From: an uncultured Anaerolineales bacterium
GTDB taxonomy: Bacteria; Chloroflexota; Anaerolineae; CG2-30-64-16
Assembly (NCBI GenBank): GCA_964474695.1
Contig: CAYYTK010000002.1
Coordinates: 235,898-299,897 of the forward strand
Direction: 5' to 3'
DNA: 64,000 nucleotides
Part shown: piece after piece, positions 2,656-59,335 of the stretch
Position numbering within the stretch: the first letter of the stretch is position 1
Layout of the letters: every line of letters starts with the position of its first letter
Position numbers and translations under genes: made by a program
Notes under the pieces: generated by a model
Told to the model about the DNA's origin: nothing
Database searches by the model: none
The model's input: the letters and a program-made list of their open reading frames with translations, nothing else

Positions 2656-3729
2656 TTACTGACCGGTATTGTTCAGCTCTTCGAAGGATTTCCGCAGCCG
2701 GGCCTTGAAGGTCTCCTCGCCGGCGCGCAGCCAGGCACGCGGGTCATAATACTTCTTGTTCGGCTCATCCGGTCCCTTGGGGTTGCCGATCTGGCCTTGC
2801 AGGTATCCTTCGTTCTTGACGTAGTAATTCTTGATGCCTTCCCAGAAGCCCCACTGCAGATCGGTGTCGATGTTCATCTTGATCACGCCATAGGAGACCG
2901 CATCGCGAATCTCCTCCAGCGTCGAGCCGGAGCCGCCATGAAAGACCAGGTCCAGCGGCTTCTCCGGCGTGCCATGCTTCTGCTGGATGTAGGCCTGGCA
3001 ATTGTGCAAGATCTCCGGCCGCAGCTTCACGTTGCCCGGCTTGTAAACGCCGTGCACGTTGCCGAACGCGGCCGCGATGGTGAAGCGCGGGCTGACCTGC
3101 ATCAGCTCCGAGTAGGCTTTATCCACATCCTCAGGCTGCGTATAGAGCCGCGAGCTGCTCACACCGGTGTTGTCGACGCCATCTTCCTCGCCGCCGGTGA
3201 TGCCCAACTCCAACTCCAGAGTCATCCCCATCTTGCTCATGCGCTCCAGGTAACGCTTGCAGGTTTCGATGATCTCGGGCAGCGGCTCTTCCGACAGGTC
3301 CAGCATATGCGAGCTGAAGAGCGGCTTGCCGTGCACCTTGTAGTAGGCCTCGCCTGCGTCCAGCAGACCATCCACCCAGGGCAGCAGTTTCTTGGCGCAG
3401 TGATCGGTGTGCACCATGACCCGCGCGCCGTAGGCTTCAGCGAGCTGATGGACGTGCATTGCGCCGGCGATGGCGCCAGCGATAGCTGAGCGCTGTCCGG
3501 TGTTGCTCAACCCCTTGCCGGCATAGAAGATCGCGCCGCCGTTGGAGAACTGAATAATCATCGGCGCATTCAGCTCGGCAGCGGTCTCCAGGCAGGCATT
3601 GACCGTGTTGGTTCCCGTACAGTTAGCAGCGGGCAGGGCGAACTGATGCGCCTTGGCATAGGCAAACACCTTCTGCACGTCGTCGCCCAGGATGACGCCA
3701 GCCGGGACTAAACCGTTTAAAGCAGACAT
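2656..3729 (-). CDS. fbaA: Class IIa fructose-1,6-bisphosphate aldolase
   Basis: MSALNGLVPAGVILGDDVQKVFAYAKAHQFALPAANCTGT...IIQFSNGGA resembles E. coli-type FbaA over its whole ~357 aa. AAGGAGG lies 8 nt upstream of the ATG at 3729. Confidence 0.9.
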   Translation of the reverse strand: MSALNGLVPAGVILGDDVQKVFAYAKAHQFALPAANCTGTNTVNACLETAAELNAPMIIQFSNGGAIFYAGKGLSNTGQRSAIAGAIAGAMHVHQLAEAYGARVMVHTDHCAKKLLPWVDGLLDAGEAYYKVHGKPLFSSHMLDLSEEPLPEIIETCKRYLERMSKMGMTLELELGITGGEEDGVDNTGVSSSRLYTQPEDVDKAYSELMQVSPRFTIAAAFGNVHGVYKPGNVKLRPEILHNCQAYIQQKHGTPEKPLDLVFHGGSGSTLEEIRDAVSYGVIKMNIDTDLQWGFWEGIKNYYVKNEGYLQGQIGNPKGPDEPNKKYYDPRAWLRAGEETFKARLRKSFEELNNTGQ

Positions 3730-3857
3730 CGTATGCACCTCCTTAATCTGAGAGAAGAGAGCGCGAAGAATCCAACATGGATTCTACTATAGAAGGTCAG
3801 TTTCTGCAACCGGGCTCCCGATCTTTGCAGGAATTCTCAATGTAGAAAAGCGCGGAG

Positions 3858-3911
3858 GCACCCTGAGCGGAGTCCCGGCCGTTTTTCTGCCGGGACGCAG
3901 TCGAAGGGCGC
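3858..3911 (+). repeat. Dispersed repeat, family GCAYCCTGAGCGGAG-(variable hairpin)-CGCAGTCGAAGGRYGC
   Basis: gcaccctgagcggag-tcccggccgtttttctgccggga-cgcagtcgaagggcgc. Related copies at 3932-3980 (inverted), 27389-27468, 63652-63705, and a partial copy at 61200-61214. Confidence 0.6.
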
Positions 3912-3931
3912 CGGAGCAGGCAGATGGGGCC

Positions 3932-3980
3932 GCATTCTTCGACTCCGTCGGGTCCCCCACCCCGACTCCGCTCAGAATGC
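3932..3980 (-). repeat. Inverted copy of the CTGAGCGGAG...AGTCGAAG repeat family
   Basis: The reverse complement reads gcattctgagcggagtcggggtgggggacccgacggagtcgaagaatgc. Confidence 0.55.
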
Positions 3981-4030
3981 TCCGGTTACATTGAGACTTG
4001 CTGCCGATGTTTCTGCACCATCCCGAACTA

Positions 4031-4039
4031 TGTTAGAAT
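4031..4039 (+). promoter_or_regulatory. Candidate extended -10 promoter element (TGtTAGAAT) for the PDO-like gene
   Basis: TGTTAGAAT lies 39 nt upstream of the ATG at 4078. The same TGnTAGAAT form recurs at 36754-36762. No clear -35. Confidence 0.35.
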
Positions 4040-4077
4040 GTTACGAGCATTGTACTTACACAAAGGGAGGGATACGC

Positions 4078-4719
4078 ATGGCACTCTTGAACGCGGCAAT
4101 CCGCAAAGACGTCAAGGCCGCGCTGGCCGACGTGAAAACGCCGGTCACGTTCAAAGTCTTCACTCAGGCCTTTGAATGCCAGTATTGCAAGGAAACGCGC
4201 GAGCTGGTGGAGGAGGTGGCAGAGCTATCCGACAAGGTCTCAGTCGAAGTTTACGATTTCGAAAAGGACAAGGCGCTGGCCGACAGCCTGGGCATCGACA
4301 AAGTCCCGGGCATGGCCATCGTCGGAGCAAAGGATTACGGCATCCGCATGTTCGGCATCCCGTCGGGCTACGAGTTCGGCGGCCTGATCGAGAGCATCAA
4401 ACTCGTCGCTGAGGGGGACTCAGGGCTGGCCCCCGACACGCGAAAGCAGATTGCCAGGCTCACAAAGCCGGTCAAGATCCAGGTCTTCATCACCCCCACC
4501 TGACCCTACTGCCCGCGAGCCGTGTCGCTCGCGTACCAAATGGCGCTGGAAAGCGATCTGATCCAGGCCCACATGGTTGAGGTTATCGAGTTTCCTCACC
4601 TTGCCAACAAATACCAGGTGATGGGCGTGCCGCGGACCGTGATCGACGAGACGATCCACATCGAGGGCGCTGTGCCTGAGCCGATGTTGATGAAGGAATT
4701 CGCCAAACTGCTGAAGTAA
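4078..4719 (+). CDS. Two-domain protein disulfide oxidoreductase / glutaredoxin-like protein (PDO family), with in-frame TGA (4501-4503) read as candidate selenocysteine
   Basis: ORFs 4078-4500 and 4504-4719 share one frame and are split only by the TGA. The N-unit has CQYC. The C-unit reads VFITPT-[TGA]-PYCPRAV, where PDO homologues have CPYC. AAGGGAGG RBS upstream of 4078. Confidence 0.7.
4514..4533 (+). promoter_or_regulatory. Candidate bacterial SECIS hairpin
   Basis: CGCGAGC-CGUGUC-GCUCGCG: 7-bp GC stem and 6-nt loop containing GU. It starts 10 nt after the UGA, and the loop is about 20 nt from the UGA. Confidence 0.5.
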
Positions 4720-4744
4720 CACTCCACCCCACAGGAGGCTTGCA

Positions 4745-5608
4745 ATGACGCAAGGGATCTCGCATGTCGGCGTCGTGGGCTGCGGGCTCATGGGCGCGGG
4801 CATCGTCGAAGTGTGCGCCAAATCGGGTTACACCGTCGTCGTGCGCGAGGCCAATCACGGACTGCTCGAAGCCGGCATTGCGCGCATCAACAGCTCGCTG
4901 GATCGGGCAGTAGCCAGGGGCAAGTTGGCTGCCGAAGACCGTGATGCCGCCCGGTCGCGCATCACTGGCGTCACCGACATGGCGGCGTTCGCGCACTGTG
5001 ACCTGGTCATCGAAGCGGTGGTCGAGAACCTCGATCTGAAGCGCGAAATCTTCGCCGAATTGGATCGGGTGACGCCGCCTCATGCGATCCTGGCCAGCAA
5101 CACCTCATCCTTGGCAGTCACTGACATGGCTGCGGCGACCAAACGTCCCGATAAGGTGCTGGGCCTCCACTTCATGCAGCCGGTGCCGGTGATGGCCCTG
5201 CTGGAGATGGTCCGCACCTTCCTCACGGGCGAGGAGACCTTCCAAACCGCCAAAGCATTCGGTGAGAGCTTAGGTAAGACGATCATCGTCAGCAAGGATA
5301 CGCCCGGCTTCGTTGTCAACCTGCTGCTGATCCCCTATTTGCTGCAGGCCATCGAAGCGCTGGAGCGGGGCGTCGCCACCAAAGAGGATTTCGATGCCGG
5401 CATCCGGCTCGGGCTGGGCCATCCGATGGGGCCGTTCACCTTGCTGGACTTGATCGGCCTGGACACCACATTGTTCATAGCCGACGCGGTGTTCGCCGAG
5501 ACCAAAGACCCGCGCTTTGCCGCGCCGCCCCTGCTCCGCCGCATGGTCAGCGCCGGGCACCTGGGCAAAAAGAACGGGAAAGGGTTCTACGATTACGGAA
5601 AGGGGTGA
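4745..5608 (+). CDS. 3-hydroxybutyryl-CoA / 3-hydroxyacyl-CoA dehydrogenase
   Basis: N-terminal Rossmann motif [13 protein letters not shown] and 287 aa length. The C-terminal ...[14 protein letters not shown] is typical of the Hbd family. Confidence 0.85.
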
Positions 5609-7337: not shown

Positions 7338-8357
7338 CTACTTGCCGCCAGGATACGTTCGATCTTCCAGGTCGGCGATGTACTTTTCCACTTCCAGCGC
7401 GGCCGCCACGCCCTGGCCTGCCGAGGTCGCGACCTGCTTGAAGCGGTGGTCCTGGATCTCACCCGCGGCGAAGATGCCGGGCACACTGGTGCGCATCAGC
7501 TTATCGGTGATCAGGTAGCCTTCCTCGTCCATTGCCAGTTTGTCGACGAAGAGCTGGTTGTTGGGCAGGTGGCCGACGTAGATGAAGACGCCGTCGACCG
7601 GCGTGTCGTGCGTCTCGCCGGTGACCACATTCTTCAAGGTGACGCTTTCGACCTTCTCCGCGCCGTTAATGCTCGTGATCACGCTGTTCCAAACAAACTC
7701 GATCTTGGGGTTTTCGACTGCGCGGCGCTGCAGGGTCGCACCGGCCCGCAATTGGTCACGGCGGTGGACGATGCGCACCCTGGACGCGAACCTGGTCAGG
7801 AACAACGCCTCTTGCAGCGCGCTGTCGCCGCCGCCGACCACCACGATTTCCTTGTTGCGGAAGAAGAAGCCGTCGCAGGTCGCGCAATAGCTGACCCCAT
7901 GTCCGGTCAGCCGTTCTTCGTTGGCGGCGCCCAGCCGTCGCGGGGATGCGCCGGTGGCCGCGACGATCGCCTTGGTCTTGAATTCGTTGCCACTGGCCGT
8001 CTTGACGGTGAAGGGCGGGCCGTTCACATCGATCTCGGTGACGGTGTCGATCAAAACCTCGGCGCCGAAGCGCTCGGCCTGCCGCTGCATTCGCTCCACC
8101 AGCTCAGGCCCCTGGATTTGCTCGAAGCCGGGGAAGTTCTCCACCTCGGTCGTCAAGGCAACCTGGCCGCCCAACTCGTTGCCGGTGATCAGCAGAGGGC
8201 GCAAATCCGCGCGCGCGACATAGATCGCAGCCGACCAGCCCGCCGGGCCGCTGCCGATGATGATCACATTTTCGATTTCGGGCCGCGGCCCCCCTTCGAT
8301 CCGGCTTTCGACCTCGGCCTTCTCGCTGCTGCCCAGGTTCAGGTTAAAATCAAGCAT
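7338..8357 (-). CDS. trxB: Thioredoxin-disulfide reductase
   Basis: VIIIGSGPAGWSAAIY (FAD motif), the CATCDG redox centre, and VVVGGGDSALQEA (NADPH motif). Confidence 0.9.
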   Translation of the reverse strand: MLDFNLNLGSSEKAEVESRIEGGPRPEIENVIIIGSGPAGWSAAIYVARADLRPLLITGNELGGQVALTTEVENFPGFEQIQGPELVERMQRQAERFGAEVLIDTVTEIDVNGPPFTVKTASGNEFKTKAIVAATGASPRRLGAANEERLTGHGVSYCATCDGFFFRNKEIVVVGGGDSALQEALFLTRFASRVRIVHRRDQLRAGATLQRRAVENPKIEFVWNSVITSINGAEKVESVTLKNVVTGETHDTPVDGVFIYVGHLPNNQLFVDKLAMDEEGYLITDKLMRTSVPGIFAAGEIQDHRFKQVATSAGQGVAAALEVEKYIADLEDRTYPGGK

Positions 8358-9893: not shown

Positions 9894-10909
9894 GCCGCCG
9901 CCTCTTGCGCCGCCGCTTGCGCCGCCACCAGGGACACCCAGTCACCCTGGCCCAGGCGGCTGACAACCGCCAACCGGCGCCGCGCCAGCGCCTCCCTCAC
10001 GTCCGGCTCGCGCTCTTCGATGATGCCGGCCAAAATCATGCGGCCCCCGGGAGCCAGGTAGGTGTGCAGGCCGGCATCCAGCAGGGCGGTGATGACATGC
10101 GGCAGGATGTTGACCAGGATGATGTCCCAGGCAGGCCGATCATCCTCGCGGCTCACGGCGAAAAGCGGCTGCCCACCGGCGCGCGATCCGTCCGCGTCAT
10201 CCGCGCTCGTCCGCGTCCAGCTTTCATCCGGCCCTGCACTGACAACGACGTGAATCGGCACAGGCAAGTCGTTCAGCGCCGCGTTCTCCTGCGTCGCGGT
10301 CACCGCGATGGGGTCGATATCGAACGCGTCCACGCTGGCCGCGCCGAGCCGGGCTGCGGCAATGCTGAGGATGCCTGAGCCGCAGCCCGCGTCCAGGACG
10401 CGCTGGCCCGGCCGCGCGACGTCTTCCATAGCCATCAGGCAGAGCTGCGTGCTGGGATGCAGGCCGGTGCCGAACGCCATGCCGGGATCGAGAATGATCG
10501 GCACGTCATCGGGGCCCACTTGAACCGCGTCACGCTCCCAGGCCGGTACGATCCAGAAGCGCCGGCCGACGCGCAGCGGCCGATAGCTGGCCTTCCACGC
10601 GTTCGCCCAATCCTCCTCAGCCAGCGGCCGCACGACGACATCGCCCAACGGATAGATGCGGCCAAGATACCACAGCCCTTCCTCGATCTGGCGCCTGCGC
10701 TCTTGCGCCTCTGGCTCGCCCGCGGGCAGATAGGTTTTCACCACGACGAACTGGTGATGCTCGTCGCCCACCGGATCGAACCCGCCGACCTCGGTTACTG
10801 CACCGCCCTGGCCGTCAGGCCGGCTGTTGAGGCGGTTGAACAACTCACTGACCGCTTCGGCCGCTTCGCCGTCTGCCTGAACGCTGATTTCAATCCAATT
10901 CATCATCAC
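9890..10909 (-). CDS. prmA: Ribosomal protein L11 methyltransferase (with an internal insertion carrying a dispersed repeat)
   Basis: [20 protein letters not shown]...[18 protein letters not shown]...[15 protein letters not shown]. The conserved dnaJ-prmA-rsmE neighbourhood supports the call. Confidence 0.85.
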
Positions 10910-12531: not shown

Positions 12532-13626
12532 TCACACCAGAAACAACTCGTACAACAACTCGTCCACATACCGGCCATCGACGAACGCCTGGTGCACCAG
12601 GCGGCCGCAAGGCTGGAAGCCCAACGCGCAGTAGAATCTCTGCGCCTCGGGATTATCATCCCGCACCGTGATAACAAGTTTGCTGAATCCTGCGGCGCGT
12701 GCAGCGTCCCACGTGAACGCGCTCAACGCGCGACCGATGCCGCGACCGCGGACCGGCGCAACGATGTAAGAACCCAGGGTGGCCACGTGATCCATGGTCG
12801 GCGCGTAAGCAGCATACGGCTCCACCACCTGGAAACCGGCCACCACCCGGCCCAGCAGTGCGATGCTCAGGAACGAGCGGCGCGGCATGCCGCGCAGATA
12901 CGCTCGCTCTTGTGCGGGGGTGAACGTGCGCCCCGCGATGGTGCGCCCACCCTCCAACACGACGCTGTTGAGCACCGCAGCCGTGCCCTCTGCATCGGCC
13001 AGGGTCGCGAAACGAATGACCGGCGCGGGCAGCGGCAGACCCAGCTCAACCCATGCGGCCAACACCATCTGCGCGGTTTCAGCCGTGGCGCCGTCCGTGC
13101 GGATGACGCGCTGCGCCTGGGCTATCATCCGGGCGGGAGGCATCTGGTTCGCCATGCGCCGCCGCACTTCCTCGGCGCTCATGCCGCGGCTCTTCTTCAG
13201 CCGGGAAAACTGAAGCCGTGGGCTGCAGTGCGCAACCCACACCTGGTCACACTGTTGCCGGTTGATCCCGGACTCAAGCAGCTTGATAGCTTCGATCACC
13301 ACCGCCGGCGCAGATGACGCAGCAATCTGCCGGGCGATGACTTCGCCCACAATCGGGTGCACGATGGCTTCCAACCGGGCCAACGCGTCGGCATCGGCAA
13401 AGACGCGCTCGGCCAGCCGCGCCCGGTCGATGGCGCCATCCGGCCCCAGGATTTCAGTGCCGAGTGAAGCCAGCACCGGGCCAAAGGCCGGGCCCCCAGG
13501 AGACATCGCCTCCCGCGCCACGAGGTCCGCGTCGATCCCCTCAGCGCCCAGCGAAGTCAGCACATTGCGTATGTGGCTTTTGCCGGCGCCGATGCCGCCG
13601 GTCAAGCCGATGACCAGAGGTTTCAT
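12532..13626 (-). CDS. coaE: Dephospho-CoA kinase fused to a C-terminal GNAT acetyltransferase domain
   Basis: The N-terminus VIGLTGGIGAGKSH (P-loop) is CoaE-like. The C-terminus ...VAPVRGRGIGRALS...NPEAQRFYCALGF is a GNAT motif. The start at 13626 forms an ATGA overlap with the ABC-F stop. Confidence 0.8.
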   Translation of the reverse strand: MKPLVIGLTGGIGAGKSHIRNVLTSLGAEGIDADLVAREAMSPGGPAFGPVLASLGTEILGPDGAIDRARLAERVFADADALARLEAIVHPIVGEVIARQIAASSAPAVVIEAIKLLESGINRQQCDQVWVAHCSPRLQFSRLKKSRGMSAEEVRRRMANQMPPARMIAQAQRVIRTDGATAETAQMVLAAWVELGLPLPAPVIRFATLADAEGTAAVLNSVVLEGGRTIAGRTFTPAQERAYLRGMPRRSFLSIALLGRVVAGFQVVEPYAAYAPTMDHVATLGSYIVAPVRGRGIGRALSAFTWDAARAAGFSKLVITVRDDNPEAQRFYCALGFQPCGRLVHQAFVDGRYVDELLYELFLV

Positions 13627-15533
13627 ACGAAGTCCGTCCACTCCACCATGAGCTTGTGCAGCTCCGTCTCCACCGCCTGATATGCCGTACCCAAACGGTG
13701 CACCCTGCCGACATCGCCGGCCAGGCTGGCGACCTCAAGCTGATGACTCAGCTCGGCAAGTTGTGCCTCCAGCTCATGAATGCGCCCTTCCAGGGCGGCG
13801 GCCACTTCGGCGCGCTTTTCGGCAGCCTTGCGCTGGCGCCGCTCTTCGCGCGTACGTTCTCGGTCATACTCCGTTGGGCCGGTTTCCTCAGCCACCGCCT
13901 CGATCTTCGCCTGATCCTCGGTCTCAATGGCCCGTTGGCGCAGGTACTCGTCGTAGTTGCCCTTATAGACGCGCAGCTCGTCACCGTCCACCCGCCAGAT
14001 GTGGGTCGCCAACGCTTGCACAATCCAGCGATCGTGCGTCACCAGCAGCACGGTGCCTGGGAAGCTGCGCAGCACCTGCTCCAGGATTTCCTGGGTGTCC
14101 AGGTCGAGGTGATTGGTCGGCTCATCCAGCAGCAGGAAATTGGCCCCTTGCAGGGTGAGCCGCGCCAGCGCGACCCGGCTGCGCTGACCGCCCGAAAGGG
14201 TGCCAATCGTGCGAAACACGTCATCGCCCGCGAACAGGAATTGACCCAGGAAGTTCCGCGCCTGGCCGAGCGGCAAGTTCTGCACATCCAGGATCGCATC
14301 CAACACCGTCTCTTCGGGGTCAAGCCCGGCCTGGGCCTGCGCCAGATAGCCGGCCTGCACGCTGGCGCCGTAACGCACCCGCCCACGCAGCGGCGGCACC
14401 TGGTCCAAAACGGTCTTCAGCAGCGTCGTTTTGCCTGCGCCGTTCGGGCCGATCAACGCCACCCGATCGCCGCGCCGGATCTCGGTATCGGGACAGAAGA
14501 ACAACGGCCGGGTGTAGCCCACCGCCAAATCCTTGGTGGCCAACACCAGGTCGCCGGATCGAATCTGTGTCGTCAATCCCAGGCGGACCTGTCTCTGATC
14601 TTGCGGCCGATCGATAGCCTCATCGCGAAGGAAGCGTTCCAGGCGCGTACGCCGGCCCTGGGCCTCGCGGGTGCGCTGTCCGGCCAGGTTGCGGCGGATG
14701 AAGTCCTCGGTCTTCTCGATGAATTCCTGTTGCGACTCCCATTCCCGACGCTGGCGCTCGATGCGCATTTCCCTCTGGGTGCGATAGGCCGAATAGTTCC
14801 CGCGATAGGTTTCCACGCGGCCGAAGTTCATGTCCCAGATGCGGTTCGCCACTTTGTCCAGGAAGTAGCGGTCATGCGCCACGACGATCAACGCGCCGTT
14901 CCAGCGCAGCAAGACCTCTTCCAGCCATTCCACCGCCTCCAGATCGAGATGGTTGGTCGGCTCGTCCAAAAGAAGCAAATCCGGCTCGCGCAGCAATAAC
15001 TGGGCCAAAAGCGCGCGCGTACGCTCCCCTCCGCTCAGGTGAGCCAGCGGCTTCGCGTGTTCATCCTCATTGAACCCCAGGCCGCCCAACACCTGGCGAA
15101 TGCGCAATTCGTAATCGTAACCGCCCGCAACCTCAAATGCGGTCTGAGCCCGGCCATAGGCTTGCAGCAACTCGTCGTAGTTATCGCCTGCCGCAGCGGC
15201 GGCCGCAGCCAGTTGATGCTCCAGGTCGGATAGCGCCGCAGCCTGGCCCCGCAGATCAGCAAAGACCTCAAGCATCGACTGGTACAGCGAGCTGTCGCCG
15301 GCCGGCGGCGGATCCTGGGGCAGATACCCTACGGTCAGGCCGCGCTTGCGCGCGACATCGCCCGCAGTGGCTGCCTCCGCCTCAGCCATGATGCGCAGCA
15401 GGGTGGTCTTGCCCGCGCCGTTCGCGCCGACGAAACCGATGCGGTCGCCCGCCTCCACGCGAACATCAACGCCGGAGAAGACATCCAATGCGCCGTAGGC
15501 TTTGGCCAGGCCGGTTGCTACTAAAAGAGACAT
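13623..15533 (-). CDS. ABC-F family ATPase (two ABC domains, coiled-coil C-terminus)
   Basis: Two Walker A sites (GANGAGKTT, GPNGAGKTT), two LSGG signatures, and no TM domain. 636 aa. Confidence 0.9.
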   Translation of the reverse strand: MSLLVATGLAKAYGALDVFSGVDVRVEAGDRIGFVGANGAGKTTLLRIMAEAEAATAGDVARKRGLTVGYLPQDPPPAGDSSLYQSMLEVFADLRGQAAALSDLEHQLAAAAAAAGDNYDELLQAYGRAQTAFEVAGGYDYELRIRQVLGGLGFNEDEHAKPLAHLSGGERTRALLAQLLLREPDLLLLDEPTNHLDLEAVEWLEEVLLRWNGALIVVAHDRYFLDKVANRIWDMNFGRVETYRGNYSAYRTQREMRIERQRREWESQQEFIEKTEDFIRRNLAGQRTREAQGRRTRLERFLRDEAIDRPQDQRQVRLGLTTQIRSGDLVLATKDLAVGYTRPLFFCPDTEIRRGDRVALIGPNGAGKTTLLKTVLDQVPPLRGRVRYGASVQAGYLAQAQAGLDPEETVLDAILDVQNLPLGQARNFLGQFLFAGDDVFRTIGTLSGGQRSRVALARLTLQGANFLLLDEPTNHLDLDTQEILEQVLRSFPGTVLLVTHDRWIVQALATHIWRVDGDELRVYKGNYDEYLRQRAIETEDQAKIEAVAEETGPTEYDRERTREERRQRKAAEKRAEVAAALEGRIHELEAQLAELSHQLEVASLAGDVGRVHRLGTAYQAVETELHKLMVEWTDFV

Positions 15534-58980: not shown

Positions 58981-59335
58981 ATGACGTTGCCGGATGCTGG
59001 AAGCCGGATATCCGAGCTTGACAGTCGGTCACCCCCACACCGTGGTGCAGAACAACCTGTTCAACCGCAGCCAGATCGGCACGGTCCTGGCGTGCGCCTT
59101 GACCTCGAACCTCAAACGGGCCAGCGCGCCCGGCAACGTCCTCCTGGCTCAAGGCGAGGCGAATCTCTCCAAGCCCAGCGTTGCCAATGTGTCACAGCTT
59201 TTGACGGTGGACAAGTCGCAGTTGGGCGAGTATATCGGGTCGCTATCCGCCAGGCGGGTGCGCCAGGTGCTGGATGGCATCAAGCTGCTCCTGGAGCCGC
59301 GCGAAGTAGATGTGGATCCGCGTAGTTGGACATGA
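58981..59335 (+). pseudogene. Degraded MazF/PemK-family toxin gene (N-terminus deleted or frameshifted), no cognate antitoxin ORF seen
   Basis: ...TVVQNNLFNRSQIGTVLACALTSNLKRASAPGNVLL..GEANLSKPSVANVSQLLTVDKSQL..IGSLS...VLDGIKLLL is the MazF/PemK core. The expected ~15-25 N-terminal residues (RG-I-W-V-D...G-E...RP) are missing. A short out-of-frame MTLPDAG..ELD start is at 58981. Confidence 0.55.

Follow-up and report, generated by a model that had tools for sequence, protein, structure and literature searches.

Protein disulfide oxidoreductases (PDOs) are known to pair with thioredoxin reductases (TrxR), and the TrxR-type partner is typically encoded next to the PDO gene. Bacterial SECIS elements, of which that of Escherichia coli fdhF is the paradigm, are hairpins within the coding sequence that lie immediately 3' of a UGA and feature G/U in a small apical loop. 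The PDO family defined by profile TIGR02187 has been catalogued as a UxxC selenoprotein family with one selenocysteine (Sec), and traced to a prokaryotic selenoproteome study of 2004 (PMC9312934, PMC13188914). Its Sec forms have been reported from Carboxydothermus hydrogenoformans and Symbiobacterium thermophilum (PMC1794560), and from Asgard archaea too (PMC13188914). Cys-containing homologs are the majority of the family, and we did not find Anaerolineae named as hosts in the accounts of it consulted here. The solved PDOs, from Pyrococcus (1A8L, 1J08), Aquifex (2AYT/2YWM) and Aeropyrum (2HLS), derive from hyperthermophiles and share a double thioredoxin fold with an N-terminal CQYC and a C-terminal xPYC motif. 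The N-terminal domain of AhpF (1HYU, 1ZYN, 4O5Q) also comprises a double thioredoxin fold with a redox CxxC in the second fold.

Here we describe a locus from an uncultured Anaerolineales bacterium, contained in a 64,000-nucleotide stretch referred to throughout as the window; related loci are designated by L numbers. The locus encodes a PDO, hereafter Sec-PDO, in which an in-frame UGA is predicted to specify Sec. Its features, together with a nearby reductase gene, are as follows:

4065 to 4071, plus strand: Shine-Dalgarno-like GGGAGGG, read from the sequence, 6 nt upstream of the ATG at 4078.
4078 to 4719, plus strand: Sec-PDO gene of 213 codons, from ATG 4078 to the terminal TAA at 4717-4719.
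4177 to 4188, plus strand: N-terminal redox motif CQYC, codons 34-37, from the translation.
4501 to 4503, plus strand: UGA codon 142, predicted to be read as Sec, the first residue of U-P-Y-C (4501-4512).
4514 to 4533, plus strand: SECIS-like hairpin, with stem 4514-4520 CGCGAGC / 4527-4533 GCUCGCG and loop CGUGUC at 4521-4526.
4510 to 4513 and 4542 to 4545, plus strand: possible lower stem UGCC / GGCG, a tentative element of the RNAalifold consensus of 22 TGA forms.
7338 to 8357, minus strand: trxB, for a thioredoxin-disulfide reductase (404.9 bits with TIGR01292, whose cut-off is 343).

A preliminary description of this DNA had joined the open reading frames 4078-4500 and 4504-4719 into one gene broken only by a TGA, with CQYC in its first unit and, ten nt past the TGA, a 7-bp GC stem with the loop CGUGUC. 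Each of these elements was found where it had been placed. The TGA at 4501-4503 is the sole in-frame stop before the terminal TAA, and sits in the residue context VFITPT-[TGA]-PYCPRAV; homologs of Sec-PDO likewise begin with MALLN or MSLLN. Public gene calls break the locus into products of 141 and 65 residues. The gene is flanked on the left by a divergently transcribed class II fructose-bisphosphate aldolase gene (2656-3738, minus strand), and on the right by a 3-hydroxybutyryl-CoA dehydrogenase gene (4745-5608, plus strand) that starts 25 nt past the Sec-PDO stop and has its own AGGAGG. Further downstream are genes for an aldo/keto reductase and a GNAT acetyltransferase (minus strand), then trxB and rsmE. 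A promoter and terminator scan of 3700-4800 found nothing.

The aldolase gene is itself one of two distinct class II fructose-bisphosphate aldolase genes that stand in tandem directly upstream of the PDO gene and divergent from it (1567-2562 and 2656-3738, both on the minus strand). One is best matched by NF005481 and TIGR01859, in both cases under the curated cut-off, and the other is of the TIGR01520 type; the tandem pair is also found in L001. Elsewhere in the window, a DUF3800-III RNA (RF02962; 59404-59510, plus strand) scores 75.8 bits, above the gathering score of 43.8. It lies just downstream of a PemK/MazF toxin gene (58994-59335, plus strand) and stops 6 nt short of the 3' terminus of a DUF3800 gene that converges on it (PF12686; 59516-60127, minus strand), an arrangement that recurs in L063.

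The read-through product scores 270.5 bits against TIGR02187.2, 'PDO_seleno_TRX', where the curated NCBIfam cut-off is 185, and residues 7-209 align to profile positions 3-207 of 209. The next NCBIfam match is the N-terminal part of AhpF (TIGR03140, residues 1-186, E 2.5e-20), and the AhpF structures were matched in the PDB as well. Two thioredoxin-fold units had been anticipated, and they are borne out both by Pfam Thioredoxin_3, which matches the protein twice, and by alignment over residues 2-209 with the best solved structures, the PDOs of P. horikoshii (1J08, E 3e-47) and P. furiosus (1A8L, E 1e-44). Within these alignments the CQYC columns are matched, a motif that relatives of Sec-PDO conserve too, and U142 falls in the column where 1A8L and 1J08 have the first Cys of their CPYC and the Cys homologs have Cys, precisely as the preliminary description had proposed for the TGA. 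Sec-PDO thus shares the fold and both motif positions of the solved PDOs, but differs from them in that its second motif is predicted to open with Sec, where they have Cys; it is also some 13 residues shorter, with two short insertions missing. Unlike AhpF, which has no N-terminal CxxC, it carries CQYC. With the published UxxC family, represented by ABB15282.1 of C. hydrogenoformans, it shares the profile, the UxxC motif by which the reviews describe the family, and, by prediction, a single Sec. Its hosts are uncultured Anaerolineae (Chloroflexota), unlike those named for the family in these accounts. We are highly confident that the gene is a member of the TIGR02187 PDO / AhpF-N-terminal-domain homolog family in its UxxC selenoprotein form.

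The reading frame is conserved on both sides of the TGA. Comparison of the window with L001, a 94%-identical locus, gave 21 synonymous and no non-synonymous codon differences across codons 143-213 (dN 0.000, dS 0.657); before the TGA, dN was 0.025 and dS 0.475. Judged by these substitutions, strong purifying selection acts on the region 3' of the TGA, which is hence translated. A homology search returned full-length relatives of 213 residues at 85-88% identity, together with 141-residue matches at 94-100% identity that stop at the same place, and the DNA behind the latter has this TGA too, with the frame continuing unbroken past it.

To the species-representative scan, which covered one genome per species and returned 45 loci, a metagenome scan added more. 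Between them, 43 distinct orthologous sequences have TGA at codon 142, and 37 distinct Cys-form sequences have TGC or TGT in that column. The stop is always TGA and never TAA or TAG, though dS between lineages reaches 0.5-0.8 and more. The window copy is found identical or nearly so (0-8 nt differences) in five other assemblies (L008, L012-L015), and a lineage 81-82 nt from the window (L002-L007), recovered from six sequencing runs, has the same TGA; of the species representatives, an uncultured Anaerolineales MAG (L016, 93%) comes nearest. Among about 25 close Anaerolineae/Anaerolineales MAGs, TGA is the sole interruption in 20 and is replaced by TGC or TGT in four, whilst a further TGA-bearing MAG, the 21st, shows frame breaks as well (L050). 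All distant homologs, from archaea, Thermotogota and Spirochaetia, have Cys at this column. TGA-bearing sequences extend to 49-58% protein identity, with the divergent family members L110, from a marine sediment metagenome (49%), and L098 (58%). Because both carry the TGA, the Sec form reaches beyond the window's own Anaerolineales clade.

The L050 copy (10001-10636 of CAVRAA010000013.1) belongs to a MAG labelled Nitrospiraceae, and is an Anaerolineae-type Sec-PDO of 86% identity with a CGCAAGC/GCUUGCG hairpin. Its N-terminal half features two extra frame breaks, and genes for tRNA-Ile and tRNA-Ala lie 2.5 kb upstream; these oddities may reflect assembly indels, mis-binning or both.

We then consider the hairpin that follows the TGA. 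Counted downstream from the TGA, the full 7-bp stem begins at 10 nt, its 6-bp core (4515-4520 / 4527-4532) at 11 nt and the loop at 17 nt. In a single sequence this hairpin is not thermodynamically exceptional and is no more than suggestive: for the fold of 4495-4560 z is -1.1 against shuffles, and equally stable folding occurs in 26% of random 40-mers in this 64% G+C window. Perfect stems of 7 bp or more at an offset of 8-14 are found at 0.65% of random window positions. It is the comparative data that make it significant. A hairpin stands 9-12 nt after the UGA in all 43 TGA forms, and the best local hairpin averages -10.6 kcal/mol in these against -4.6 kcal/mol in the 37 Cys forms, for which a rank test is indicative only as the sequences are related. 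Every one of 22 TGA forms pairs the 6-bp core, and 14 also form the seventh, closing pair.

Three compensated variants of the stem were identified, CGCGAGC/GCUCGCG, CGCAAGC/GCUUGCG and CGCCAGC/GCUGGCG, in which an amino-acid change (R to Q or P) is coupled with a synonymous Leu change. The pair concerned (26/39 of alignment A2, window 4517/4530) is GC in 32 sequences, CG in six and AU in three, and is never unpaired. The covariation score of 0.107, compared with 0.021 for shuffles, was reached by none of 500 shuffles; the case for covariation rests on this one pair, with its two compensatory pair types, and on two re-invented hairpins, most stem positions being invariant. These re-invented hairpins, CCAUCCG-CGGUG-CGGAUGG in L110 and CAGGC-CGUGC-GCCUG in L098, are unrelated in sequence to that of the window and yet occupy the same place. 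The possible lower stem shows no compensatory change, and its 3' arm is also constrained by coding.

Synonymous positions tell the same region apart from the rest of the gene. Third-codon-position entropy over codons 144-151 is 0.03 bits, compared with 1.05 gene-wide, and is the lowest of any 8-codon window in the gene. Throughout the TGA forms Arg147 is written with the rare codon CGA and Leu151 with CTC, the sole departures being joint changes at both; in the five Cys forms nearest to them these codons are variable. Compared with the established pattern of the E. coli fdhF-type SECIS, the Sec-PDO hairpin agrees in a core stem that starts 11 nt after the UGA and in a small loop with G/U, but differs in sequence and has no bulged U in its stem. 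Neither a gathering-threshold Rfam scan of the whole window nor a permissive E-value scan of 4440-4640 returned a SECIS or tRNA-Sec match, and the hairpin fits none of the Rfam families. The alignment of homologs that the preliminary description had called for, asking whether they carry Cys or TGA plus a conserved hairpin, thus separates 43 TGA forms with a hairpin from 37 Cys forms with TGC or TGT. The tie it had proposed between a SECIS-like hairpin and the UGA holds in all 43 of the former, with compensatory changes, and the hairpin is mostly absent from the latter.

The Cys forms are of two kinds. In most, the hairpin is broken or missing; it is kept in L033/L085, L092 and L035. These TGC-bearing sequences are close to TGA forms and retain GCGAGC...GCUCGC intact or with one G-U pair, and their sequences suggest recent reversion from Sec to Cys, with a SECIS left behind as a relic. 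Close Anaerolineae relatives with TGC or TGT include L009, L011 and L019, and in a neighbor-joining tree L011/L019, L033 and L036, all of them Cys forms, branch next to the TGA clade or inside it.

We searched for the Sec machinery across the 64-kb window and about 1 Mb of related flanks. ARAGORN found no tRNA-Sec in the window or in 25 related loci, and Rfam gave no tRNA-Sec match in the window. Searches by tblastn with E. coli SelA, SelB and SelD, taken from NC_000913.3, detected no selA, selB or selD in the window or the related loci covered, the sole match being an EF-type GTPase in one archaeal locus. A scan of the window for in-frame TGAs with coding-like GC3 on both sides revealed no second selenoprotein gene, returning only off-frame artefacts besides 4501. 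Three selenoprotein families have been reported in Chloroflexi (PMC1794560, table 2), and tRNA-Sec is documented in this phylum (PMC5389517); the Sec machinery is presumably present in the source genome. TGA is also the commonest ordinary stop in the window, where it ends 24 of 53 confident ORFs, and reassignment of the codon was rejected on this basis.

The alternative that survives best is a programmed UGA read-through in which a standard residue (Cys, Trp or Gly) would enter at the UGA, with the hairpin as its stimulator. It would accord with the window and flanks, in which Sec machinery was not seen, and the sequence data are equally compatible with any inserted residue. However, the UGA stands in for a redox-active Cys within a CxxC, which is the classic position of Sec, in a family catalogued with UxxC. 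Moreover, the geometry of the hairpin (stem 10-11 nt and loop 17 nt after the UGA, with G in the loop) fits the established bacterial SECIS pattern, TGA serves as an ordinary stop in the rest of the window, and Sec use is known in Chloroflexi (PMC1794560, PMC5389517). We consider such read-through very unlikely. The same slight probability is given to a clade that dispenses with selABCD altogether and recodes the UGA outside the canonical Sec pathway, its hairpin directing either a different residue or, by some non-canonical route, Sec into the protein.

Somewhat less probable again is a split gene, in which translation would stop at the TGA, the last 65 codons would be made separately from the GTG at 4522, and the two polypeptides would assemble. 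This would likewise explain purifying selection 3' of the TGA, and the GTG is indeed present, gene callers predicting a 65-residue ORF from it. No Shine-Dalgarno sequence or other ribosome-binding site precedes this GTG, however, the upstream sequence being CTGCCCGCGAGCC, and the hairpin lies over the start codon, where it would hinder rather than aid initiation. Such an arrangement would also divide a thioredoxin fold within the active site and lose PYC-PRA, whose amino acids are conserved. Furthermore, a true stop should drift between TGA, TAA and TAG, and yet it is TGA in 43 of 43 sequences and falls exactly on the column of the catalytic Cys.

A nonsense pseudogene, in which a TGC-to-TGA mutation inactivated the PDO gene and left its 3' part to decay, might be suspected from the division of the locus by gene callers into 141 and 65 residues, and from the close relatives that have TGC or TGT. 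But the TGA is common to 43 distinct sequences, some as low as 49-58% in protein identity, in which the frame has neither a further stop nor a frameshift, dN/dS is close to zero past the TGA and the synonymous sites of the hairpin are frozen. This conservation and purifying selection refute decay, to which we attach scarcely any credence. A sequencing or assembly error, with the A of the TGA miscalled in a TGC or TGT, can be dismissed as the least credible of all: indel errors do occur in some related long-read assemblies (the trxB of L001 lies in three ORFs, and L050 has frame breaks), but the same codon is found, across different projects, in the independent assemblies GCA_000987625.1, ERZ25038436, SRR24415078, SRR24415079 and ERR1823512, in SRR18116728-33 and SRR31243276-77, and in many MAGs.

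On these comparisons the locus is very probably a selenoprotein gene, with a conserved SECIS hairpin assisting the decoding of UGA 4501 as Sec. The preliminary description had favored a selenoprotein over a nonsense pseudogene, and this preference is upheld by the conserved TGA, the want of further lesions, purifying selection, hairpin covariation and family membership. In the proposed mechanism, the mRNA hairpin 4514-4533 would act as a bacterial SECIS, with its G+C-rich stem 10-11 nt after the UGA and a loop of the form CGUGNN. Its binding by SelB would recruit SelB-GTP-Sec-tRNASec, such that UGA 4501 would yield Sec, rather than termination or another amino acid. The nucleophilic first Cys of the second CxxC would thereby be replaced to give U142-P-Y-C145, with U142 in a catalytic role, and the mature protein would reduce or isomerize disulfides via a U142-C145 selenenylsulfide. 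An NADPH-dependent thioredoxin reductase, for example the TrxB encoded 2.6 kb away, could then re-reduce Sec-PDO.

That a nearby trxB might supply the reductase had also been proposed, and this link proved weaker than had been suggested. The gene is a genuine trxB by its TIGR01292 match. Three unrelated genes separate it from Sec-PDO, and it is on the opposite strand, so it is near Sec-PDO but not co-transcribed with it, and the proximity is seen only in the window and its closest relatives, L008 and L001. In the distant Cys forms L042, L043, L045 and L053-L060, a trxB-like gene is instead found directly downstream of the PDO gene on the same strand, which supports a PDO/TrxR partnership at the level of the family. 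AhpF likewise takes its electrons from a TrxR-type flavoprotein, but there the module is fused, whereas in the window it is a separate gene. It is a reasonable inference that the TrxB encoded at 7338-8357 is a candidate partner that reduces Sec-PDO.

The PDO-TrxR operon of the distant Cys forms, which are found in Thermotogota, DHVE2 and other archaea, and Spirochaetia, places the trxB-like gene some 60-700 nt after the PDO gene and resembles a split AhpF. In L001 the trxB orthologue (13351-14370, minus strand, of ERZ25039459 contig_78600) is broken by gene calling into three fragments of 64, 113 and 143 residues and is matched by tblastn in three frames, probably through assembly indel errors rather than biology.

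The family, its UxxC motif and its mechanism are already established, and the Anaerolineae member adds a lineage to them without changing what is known of selenoproteins. As a matter of annotation, the fragments of 141 and 65 residues in dozens of Anaerolineae MAGs and metagenomes should become one selenoprotein. The Sec-PDO clade offers a clean example of SECIS gain, maintenance and decay alongside Sec/Cys switches. A milder version of the non-canonical reading would take the clade as a natural series of repeated Sec-to-Cys reversions that left 'fossil' SECIS hairpins; if true, those of L033/L085, L092 and L035 could be used to measure the speed of SECIS decay. For the organisms themselves, decoding of the UGA as Sec would mean that a large uncultured clade of Anaerolineae, widespread in metagenomes of sludge, sediment and bioreactors, needs selenium for a housekeeping thiol-disulfide oxidoreductase.
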